Source: Escherichia coli (GTDB lineage Bacteria; Pseudomonadota; Gammaproteobacteria; Enterobacterales; Enterobacteriaceae). From it: a stretch of DNA of 64,000 nucleotides. The position numbers and the translations under genes were made by a program. A model generated the notes under the pieces. It did no database searches. It was given only the letters and a program-made list of their open reading frames with translations, and was not told the origin of the DNA. Numbering within the stretch: position 1 is the first letter of the stretch; every line of letters begins with the position of its first letter. Positions 7,028 through 41,866 of this stretch are shown here, piece after piece. The stretch lies in assembly GCF_030013595.1 (NCBI RefSeq), contig NZ_CP122768.1; one strand, 5' to 3'.

Positions 7028-7050
7028 TAACAATGATTCTTATTATCAAT
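7028..7050 (-). promoter_or_regulatory. Fur-box-like motif immediately upstream of ydiE
   Basis: aatgattcttattatc resembles Fur consensus gataatgataatcattatc (about 12 of 16 positions). Confidence 0.4.
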
Positions 7051-30927: not shown

Positions 30928-31334
30928 TATGGAAACGAAAAATCACCCTGGAAGCACTGAATGCCATGGGTGAAGGAAACATGGTGGGGTTACTGGATAT
31001 TCGCTTTGAACATATTGGTGATGACACCCTTGAAGCGACAATGCCAGTAGACTCGCGAACAAAGCAGCCTTTCGGGTTGCTGCATGGAGGGGCATCCGTG
31101 GTACTGGCCGAAAGTATCGGTTCCGTTGCCGGTTATTTATGTACCGAAGGTGAGCAAAAGGTGGTTGGCCTGGAAATCAATGCTAACCACGTCCGCTCGG
31201 CACGAGAAGGGCGGGTACGCGGCGTATGCAAACCGTTGCATCTCGGTTCGCGTCACCAGGTCTGGCAGATTGAAATCTTCGATGAGAAAGGGCGTTTGTA
31301 CTGTTCGTCACGATTGACGACCGCGATTTTGTGA
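30924..31334 (+). CDS. menI: 1,4-dihydroxy-2-naphthoyl-CoA thioesterase (hotdog fold)
   Basis: 136-aa ORF recognised as MenI/YdiI. Confidence 0.9.
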   Translation: MIWKRKITLEALNAMGEGNMVGLLDIRFEHIGDDTLEATMPVDSRTKQPFGLLHGGASVVLAESIGSVAGYLCTEGEQKVVGLEINANHVRSAREGRVRGVCKPLHLGSRHQVWQIEIFDEKGRLYCSSRLTTAIL

Positions 31335-31436
31335 CGTTGTCACCAGAAAAGTGTGACGCATATTGCTTTTGGTCATTATCTGCACAGTAAACGGTGGTAT
31401 ACTGTGCAGGTCTTGTCTAAAAGCGAGGATGCTATG

Positions 31437-31622
31437 TCTACTCAACTTGATCCCACCCAGCTGGCCATTGAATTTTTACGCCGTGACCAGAGCAATCTTT
31501 CACCTGCCCAATATCTCAAACGTCTGAAACAACTAGAACTTGAATTTGCTGACCTGCTTACTCTCTCTTCTGCTGAATTAAAAGAAGAAATCTACTTTGC
31601 CTGGCGTCTGGGCGTGCATTGA
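31437..31622 (+). CDS. ydiH: small uncharacterised protein
   Basis: 62-aa ORF (MSTQLDPTQLAIEFL...) inside the 89-aa track ORF. Confidence 0.65.
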   Translation, partial: STQLDPTQLAIEFLRRDQSNLSPAQYLKRLKQLELEFADLLTLSSAELKEEIYFAWRLGVH

Positions 31623-31821
31623 TCCTGACTTAATGCTGCAATTTCGCCAAATCGACCTGGATTAACCTCCGTCCAGGTTCGATAACCTTCTTAATACTGC
31701 TTATCTAACCGCCTGATATTGTTCAAAAATAATACTAATCGCAGTTTGTGTTAAAACGACGGCTTAGCTTTATGAGATTATTCTTATCGCCCCTTCAAGA
31801 GCTAAGCCACTGAGAGTGCCG

Positions 31822-31889
31822 GAGATAAGCGCCGGATGGGGTAGAAACCCTTAAGCCTGTGTCGCACAGACTTAAGGGTTTTCTTATTT
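31822..31889 (+). ncRNA. candidate small RNA ending in a strong intrinsic terminator (possibly RydB)
   Basis: Hairpin cccttaagcctgtg-tcg-cacagacttaaggg plus U-run at 31848-31889, about 225 bp after ydiH; K-12 has RydB between ydiH and sufA; 5' end not determinable here. Confidence 0.35.
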
Positions 31890-31975
31890 CTGAACGCTGC
31901 ACTTTTTTACCTATCTCTTAAATAGTCATTTTCAATACAACTTTTTCTTTTTCATCACAGCCTTAATGCTCCTTA

Positions 31976-31991
31976 GATAATAATCATTATC
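31976..31991 (+). promoter_or_regulatory. distal Fur-box-like (or IHF-like) motif upstream of sufA
   Basis: gataataatcattatc, near-perfect match to Fur consensus core, about 195 bp upstream of sufA ATG. Confidence 0.3.
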
Positions 31992-32111
31992 TAACAATGA
32001 GATACCTAATTCTTAGCGTGCCTGTTAACCCACACATCAGGGTCTATGCTTATTAAAAGCAAGAAAAAAGCATGTTTTACGGTAAAGCCCCTGCGTTTGC
32101 TGGGTTGAACT

Positions 32112-32126
32112 GATAATCATTATCAC
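32112..32126 (+). promoter_or_regulatory. Fur box at the suf operon promoter
   Basis: gataatcattatcac about 45 bp upstream of sufA ATG; suf operon is Fur-repressed in K-12. Confidence 0.6.
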
Positions 32127-32170
32127 TAACATGCTGTTATACGCTGAAAGCGATGAAGTGAGGTAAATCG

Positions 32171-32539
32171 ATGGACATGCATTCAGGAACCTTTAATCCA
32201 CAGGATTTCGCCTGGCAGGGCTTAACGCTGACACCCGCAGCCGCTGTCCACATACGCGAGCTGGTGGCAAAGCAGCCGGGTATGGTCGGCGTGCGCTTAG
32301 GCGTGAAGCAAACGGGCTGCGCGGGCTTTGGCTATGTGCTCGACAGTGTTAGCGAGCCGGACAAAGACGATCTGCTGTTTGAACACGACGGTGCGAAGCT
32401 GTTTGTCCCGCTGCAAGCGATGCCGTTTATTGATGGCACGGAAGTCGATTTCGTTCGTGAAGGACTTAATCAGATATTCAAATTTCACAACCCTAAAGCC
32501 CAGAATGAATGTGGCTGTGGCGAAAGCTTTGGGGTATAG
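32171..32539 (+). CDS. sufA: Fe-S cluster A-type carrier
   Basis: 122-aa ORF with C-terminal CGCGESF motif. Confidence 0.95.
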
Positions 32540-41626: not shown

Positions 41627-41866
41627 CCATTCAGGATGAGGCGGTAAGCTTCATCCTGATATTCTTGCTTCAGTTGCGGTCGAGTTAATCATTCTAAATA
41701 ACAACTGCTGAAATTATACGAATTTCGGTATGTATTTTAATTTATAACGATAATGTTATTTTTATTTTCTGCAATGAACGTCACAAATAATTGTCGTTTA
41801 AGTTAAATTTATTTCAAATGATAATAAATATCAGTTCACTTATAATTTCTTGCTTTGTGATTTTAA

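Follow-up and report, generated by a model that had tools for sequence, protein, structure and literature searches.

The 548 bp that separate ydiH from sufA in Escherichia coli raise the question of what such a long gap contains, and in particular whether a strong hairpin within it ends a transcript of its own and whether both of its Fur-box-like motifs are Fur operators. We addressed this question in a window of 64,000 nt (the whole stretch of DNA that was analyzed, and to which all positions refer unless a genome is named). The order of genes on the plus strand is ydiJ, menI, ydiH, the gap, and sufABCDSE; the gap runs from the ydiH stop codon, which ends at 31622, to the sufA ATG at 32171, in concordance with the annotation of strains KE55 and K-12. 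Over positions 31300 to 32300, the window shows 100% identity with E. coli strain KE55, and this region was matched in 5421 of 5426 complete E. coli genomes, and the alignment of the window with K-12 MG1655 gives approximately 99% identity. The list of open reading frames places two short ones inside the gap, of 35 and 31 aa, both on the minus strand. An earlier reading of this DNA from its letters alone (the sequence-only reading) had given sequences and coordinates for the two motifs, the hairpin, and the gap, and every one of them is correct in the window. Our analysis indicates that the gap very probably consists of two known co-directional units, rydB and the suf control region, with the motif farther from sufA (the distal motif) forming part of an IHF region (Table 1). 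Earlier work has already described rydB and its terminator, the Fur operator of the suf promoter (PsufA), and the IHF/OxyR module upstream of it, and the suf promoter is among the best mapped in E. coli, so that the discovery value of the locus is small. A 12-pair hairpin at 31651–31683 (AUCGACCUGGAU...GUCCAGGUUCGAU), located 30 nt past the ydiH stop codon and without a clear U-run, may be a weak ydiH terminator or stabilizer.

Table 1. Features of the ydiH–sufA region, in window coordinates
Feature	Position	Strand	Evidence
ydiH CDS, 62 aa	31434..31622	+	ORF list; RefSeq annotation of KE55 and K-12
Putative rydB promoter, extended −10 TGaGATTAT	31773..31781	+	conserved TGAGAnnAT, from which the function is predicted
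Mature RydB sRNA, 61 nt	31789..31849	+	Rfam RF00118; Salmonella dRNA-seq TSS; K-12 Term-seq 3′ end
Stem-loop 31844–31882 and U-rich tail, intrinsic-terminator-like, rydB unit	31844..31889	+	fold, covariation
OxyR site (ORE-I), CTAT-N7-ATAG-N7-C(T/A)AT block	31910..31945	.	conserved across genera; OxyR upstream per reviews
Distal Fur-box-like motif GATAATAATCATTATC, −163 to −148, most likely the AT-rich 5′ flank of the IHF site	31976..31991	.	
Putative IHF core element TAACAATGAGATA (ORE-II)	31992..32004	+	aligned to the Citrobacter perfect site
Conserved block CAGGGTCTATGCTTATTAAAAGC, −102 to −79	32037..32060	.	nearly invariant in 15/15 aligned sequences
IscR type-2 site AAAGCCCCTGCGTTTGCTGGGTTGAA (ORE-III)	32084..32109	.	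published mutations map here with TSS 32139; conserved
PsufA core: −35 TTGAAC 32105–32110; Fur operator TGATAATCATTATCA 32111–32125; −10 TAACAT 32127–32132; TSS A32139	32105..32139	+	
sufA, first gene of sufABCDSE	32171..32539	+	ORF list; annotation

The Fur, IscR, IHF, and OxyR sites of PsufA are reportedly described in Outten 2004, Lee 2004 and 2008, and Mettert and Kiley 2014. The motif proximal to sufA, which had been noted as gataatcattatcac at 32112–32126, is the Fur operator that experiments have defined in PsufA, located between the −35 and −10 elements. The operator matches the 15-bp "7-1-7" consensus TGATAATnATTATCA at 15 of 15 positions and the 19-mer GATAATGATAATCATTATC at 16 of 19, and all 22 syntenic loci (those with rydB and then sufA) keep it at −61 or −62 relative to the ATG. 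Published mutations of PsufA convert ATA at −26 to −24 into TAT in the Fur site, and in the IscR site either delete −56 to −51 or change C to G at −50 (PMC12594620); because both sets of mutations fit the window only if transcription starts at A32139, that base was taken as the transcription start site (TSS). In uropathogenic strain CFT073, the sufA region has a single Fur ChIP-seq peak with its summit at 1920586 (PMC7157518, Table S5), and this summit maps to the first base of the proximal box. The proposal of the sequence-only reading that the proximal box is positioned to repress the suf promoter is therefore borne out by the published operator, its conservation, and its place under the CFT073 summit. 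When iron is plentiful, Fur occupies this perfect 7-1-7 box within the PsufA core and keeps RNA polymerase out, and apo-IscR activates the promoter from the site that adjoins the Fur box.

OxyR binds far upstream of PsufA and needs DNA bending by IHF to reach the promoter, and IHF, placed between the OxyR site and the promoter, is required for OxyR-dependent suf activation (PMC8593673; PMC8300815). Oxidized OxyR bound approximately 200 to 235 bp upstream would activate PsufA through the bend made by IHF. Lee et al. 2004 are said to have located the OxyR element at −236 to −197 and the IHF element, ORE-II, at −156 to −127; with the TSS at 32139, we take these to be 31903–31942, which coincides with the conserved CTAT block, and 31983–32012, respectively. 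The Citrobacter sequence AATCAATGCATTG is a perfect match to the IHF consensus WATCAANNNNTTR and aligns with E. coli TAACAATGAGATA, which has two mismatches to the IHF core WATCARNNNNTTR and whose 5′ flank is the AT-rich distal motif; a search for the exact IHF consensus returned no match at the E. coli ORE-II site. Farther toward the promoter, the conserved block CAGGGTCTATGCTTATTAAAAGC contains the palindrome TGCTT-N5-AAGCA and is nearly invariant in Escherichia, Citrobacter, and Leclercia. NsrR is a reported repressor of suf, and for this reason the block may be an NsrR site.

The distal motif, previously noted as gataataatcattatc at 31976–31991, contains a match to the 7-1-7 consensus at 31978–31992 with two mismatches (13/15; 14/19 to the classical consensus). 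Of the two motifs that the sequence-only reading had described as close matches to the Fur consensus, the proximal one is perfect and the distal one has these two mismatches. The K-12 allele of the distal motif has three mismatches (12/15; 13/19). Depending on the Escherichia species, base 31984 at the center of the motif is T, C, or G; in 5426 E. coli genomes it is T in 2139 (39%) and C in 3268 (60%). The T allele is found in this window, in CFT073, and in an O157:H7 strain, and the C allele is found in K-12, so that the window is one step closer to a Fur box than K-12 at this position. No match with three or fewer mismatches was detected at the distal position outside Escherichia among the genera examined, which were Citrobacter, Leclercia, Silvania, and Pseudenterobacter. 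The motif adjoins the IHF core of the OxyR/IHF module. Because it is confined to Escherichia, polymorphic within it, and adjacent to the position of the IHF consensus, we read the distal motif as an IHF flank, most probably a stretch peculiar to Escherichia within the AT-rich 5′ half of the IHF region, rather than a selected Fur operator.

An alternative is a genuine second Fur operator at the distal position, at least where the T allele is present; by competing with IHF, Fur at this site would block OxyR activation under iron-replete conditions. This alternative is unlikely, although several observations speak for it. Matches of the 13/15 type fall among those of weak functional Fur sites, which by itself does not make them operators. 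Simulations with a first-order Markov model of the gap's composition (60% A+T) gave a 0.4% chance of at least one match with two or fewer mismatches in 548 nt, compared with 4.8% for three or fewer mismatches, as in the K-12 allele. The motif also directly abuts the IHF core. Across the whole 64 kb, we found four matches to the 7-1-7 consensus with two or fewer mismatches, against 0.23 expected, and the three other than the distal copy are all in promoters with Fur ChIP peaks (ydiE, sufA, and ydhY); since these matches of like quality lie in such promoters, the distal copy could bind Fur. What weighs against an operator is that the motif is missing from Citrobacter, Leclercia, Silvania, and Pseudenterobacter, in which the proximal box is invariant, and that the key half-site base varies as described above. 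Moreover, in CFT073, which carries the T allele, the single Fur peak culminates at the proximal box, 126 bp away from the distal motif (PMC7157518), although two sites 133 bp apart are incompletely separable by ChIP-seq, and published work treats one Fur site, the one mutated to make PsufA(Fur*) (PMC12594620). The suggestion of the sequence-only reading that the distal copy might be a second Fur site accordingly finds little footing in conservation, in allele distribution, or in the ChIP data. A T-allele distal motif that acts as a strain-variable Fur site gating IHF/OxyR activation is conceivable from the sequence, but it is less likely than the maturation signal considered below for RydB. 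The two-allele polymorphism at 31984 beside the IHF site nevertheless constitutes a cheap natural experiment on the interplay of Fur and IHF.

The two remaining Fur-box-like matches of the window lie at a distance from the gap. TGATTCTTATTATCA at 7034–7048 (two mismatches) is in the aroH–ydiE spacer just upstream of ydiE, a gene with a strong Fur ChIP-seq peak in CFT073, and TGATAATAAATATCA at 41819–41833 (one mismatch) is in the spacer between fumD (ydhZ) and ydhY, upstream of ydhY by approximately 250 bp; ChIP has reportedly identified the ydhYVWXUT operon as a Fur target.

The part of the gap nearer ydiH is occupied by rydB. The Rfam family RF00118 (rydB) matches 31789–31849 on the plus strand over model positions 1–61 of 61, scoring 81.6 bits where the gathering score is 50 (E = 3.6e-19). 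In K-12, the ncRNA gene rydB (b4430) lies between ydiH and sufA on the strand of sufA, which is the same locus as in the window. The sRNA has been annotated since 2001; the "candidate sRNA" of the sequence-only reading is already both a K-12 annotation and an Rfam family. In terms of folding energy, the 61-nt RydB is unremarkable (z = −0.01); what supports it is the covariance model, together with conservation.

Both ends of RydB have been mapped in the literature, in strains other than the one analyzed here, and were projected onto the window. The RydB TSS determined by dRNA-seq in Salmonella is the G of GCCCC (PMC3963941, supplementary file 14), equivalent to window position 31789. For the other end, the curated K-12 Term-seq data of Adams et al. 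2021 contain one 3′ end in the whole ydiH–sufA gap, 1764708(−) (PMC7815308, supplementary file 1), which was entered three times across the three-condition table. Its read counts in LB were 2.2 million (OD 0.4) and 4.1 million (OD 2.0), a level comparable to that of tRNAs (PMC7815308). In the 61-mers printed in that table, the 3′-terminal base is position 51, as verified on the aspU and aspV rows, and 1764708 therefore corresponds to ...GGGGUAGAAACC-3′, ending at window position 31849, which is also the last base of the Rfam match. By these data RydB is transcribed on its own, from a start site that belongs to it, and has a single defined 3′ end. The alignment with the K-12 rydB annotation that the sequence-only reading had proposed places the 68-nt GenBank feature b4430 at 31777–31844, starting 12 nt upstream of the TSS-equivalent base and ending 5 nt before the Term-seq 3′ end, whereas the 61-nt Rfam model agrees with both mapped ends. 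The corrected rydB gene model is 31789–31849 with a terminator extending to 31889, and the K-12 GenBank feature appears to be shifted.

The element TGAGAnnAT upstream of rydB is kept in Escherichia, Citrobacter, and Leclercia, as seen in the alignment, and in Salmonella and many other genera; in the window it forms an extended −10, TGnGATTAT, that ends 7 nt before the TSS-equivalent base and from which RydB transcription would start at approximately 31789. It could be argued instead that the hairpin downstream of RydB mainly terminates the ydiJ-menI-ydiH mRNA and that RydB, lacking its own promoter, is excised from the 3′ UTR of this mRNA. Such an origin would account for the processed 3′ end of mature RydB and for the retention of ydiH–rydB synteny in several genera, and the scan found no further terminator-like site between the ydiH stop codon and the hairpin, the stem-loop close to the stop codon being without a U-run. 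We nonetheless regard it as quite improbable. The RydB 5′ end is preceded, at a distance of 7 nt, by the conserved extended −10, and dRNA-seq detects the Salmonella TSS at exactly the equivalent base (PMC3963941). Homologs of rydB in genera in which ydiH is not adjacent still possess TGAGAnnAT and terminators of their own. In addition, Term-seq recorded no ydiH-associated 3′ end at all while RydB reads were at tRNA level (PMC7815308). Use of the terminator by the ydiH mRNA and by rydB could, however, coexist.

A promoter has also been placed between rydB and sufA. The first GATAAT of the distal motif could be the −10 element of a second, upstream sigma-70 promoter of suf, ATCACA-16-GATAAT, with a leader of approximately 180 nt: the consensus scan found this arrangement at 31954–31981, and the same sequence was printed as the "constitutive promoter" under an RpoD genomic-SELEX peak between rydB and sufA (PMC3946193). 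This possibility is highly improbable, since the arrangement matches the consensus at 9 of 12 positions, a quality no commoner than in shuffled sequence (three sites found, 1.6 expected), both of its hexamers are missing outside Escherichia, and the SELEX peak is broad, with the printed sequence representing the best guess in a region that also contains the rydB and sufA promoters. Of the further options that the sequence-only reading had offered for the distal copy, the IHF site is the one favored by the evidence, and the promoter of a divergent small transcript is not supported, as the consensus scan found no minus-strand promoter-like site at the motif.

The distribution of the rydB family extends far beyond what the E. 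coli locus would suggest. A scan of species-representative genomes for the rydB core identified more than 100 loci across the Enterobacterales, and seven diverse examples covering both subfamilies all exceeded the Rfam threshold. The two sequence subfamilies are CAAGAGCTAAGCCA... and CAGAGCTAACGCCAC..., and two rydB copies per genome are frequent in Pantoea, Rouxiella, Serratia sp., and Sodalis. For the hairpin of the window, the homologs in other genera and contexts are informative: a crude scan detected a hairpin followed by a T-tail after 78 of 113 distinct loci, with hairpins unrelated to the one described here. Because these loci have their own terminators in other contexts, a terminator after rydB is a trait of rydB and not of ydiH.

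In the window, the hairpin at 31844–31882 has 17 pairs with one C·A mismatch, a ΔG of −22 kcal/mol, and a z of −6.4 relative to shuffled sequences, and it is followed by UUUUCUUAUUU up to 31889. Among 25 distinct orthologous sequences from five genera (Escherichia, Citrobacter, Salmonella, Leclercia, and Silvania), the stem is paired in 95% of cells, and four pairs show compensatory change in 22 cells; none of 500 shuffles reached the observed level, and slid controls were 19 to 55% paired. A simple terminator scan of the window did not flag the hairpin, which probably reflects the internal C·A mismatch; the same scan flagged the Citrobacter sedlakii ortholog, which has a perfect stem, as terminator-like. 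Others have recorded a Rho-independent terminator for rydB in a 2025 survey (PMC12306157), and the Salmonella RydB annotation, at 105 nt, would be of sufficient length to extend to the terminator end (PMC2515195). A pairing of the U-tract CUUAUUUCU with the RydB loop GGAGAUAAG, present in the minimum free energy structure of the long form, was examined by eye and rejected, since Citrobacter does not conserve it.

The hairpin directly follows rydB and shares its 5′ arm with the last 6 nt of the mature RNA, and "orphan," as the sequence-only reading had called this terminator, is consequently not an apt description. The accompanying view that the hairpin serves a short independent transcript such as RydB is supported by the concordance of the Rfam match, the conserved promoter element, and the mapped ends. 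The same reading had expected a transcript end at approximately 31889. In the curated Term-seq data for three conditions, no 3′ end is present at the U-tract, 31881–31889 (K-12 17646xx) (PMC7815308), and the abundant end is instead at 31849, the sixth nucleotide of the hairpin 5′ arm. Because the abundant 3′ end is at 31849 and none is at the U-tract, mature RydB is a 61-nt RNA without the hairpin. Rapid processing of the precursor may account for the Term-seq gap at the U-tract. The enrichment of Salmonella RydB with Hfq is only 2.5-fold (PMC2515195), a weak enrichment that is consistent with an RNA without a U-tail. On the basis of sequence and conservation, we infer that the hairpin most likely terminates a RydB precursor, which is trimmed afterward: transcription would most likely end at the hairpin and U-tract, 31844–31889, and a precursor of approximately 100 nt would then be cut or trimmed in the hairpin 5′ arm to yield the abundant, tail-less 61-nt RydB.

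The outer 8 bp of the stem, 31848–31855 paired with 31871–31878 (CCCTTAAG/CTTAAGGG), are invariant in the 25 sequences from five genera. The inner stem and loop vary with compensation, and the mature 3′ end lies inside the invariant outer arm, a pattern that suggests that this arm could be a sequence-specific processing signal. We tentatively propose, as a possibility that we hold to be the lesser one, that the rydB terminator doubles as a conserved maturation signal through its outer stem (CCCUUAAG/CUUAAGGG) and that RydB is matured like a stable RNA. If this were true, maturation in the manner of a stable RNA, the missing U-tail, and the weak Hfq enrichment would point to a protein-binding or structural role for RydB and not to classical base-pairing. 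That the mature end falls inside the RNA's own terminator stem is relevant to the biogenesis of an RNA that is extremely abundant and also widely conserved.

RNase P offers a parallel: the terminator of its stable M1 RNA is removed from the precursor during 3′ maturation. As an analogy of mechanism only, with the RydB precursor inferred here, RydB would resemble M1 RNA in being abundant and compactly folded and in having its mature 3′ end upstream of an intrinsic terminator, without a U-tail. Compared with K-12, in which RydB (b4430; also known as tpe7 and IS082; RF00118) is identical in sequence to the window over the RNA and the hairpin, the difference is one of annotation, the K-12 GenBank feature leaving the terminator hairpin outside and having coordinates offset from the mapped ends. 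The promoter, Fur box, IscR site, and TSS numbering of the known E. coli PsufA region map base for base to the window, and the OxyR-like and IHF-like blocks of the window are conserved as in the known PsufA module. The window differs from K-12 PsufA by T in place of C at 31984 and by two changes, at 32065 and 32067, in the A-rich tract that precedes the IscR site.
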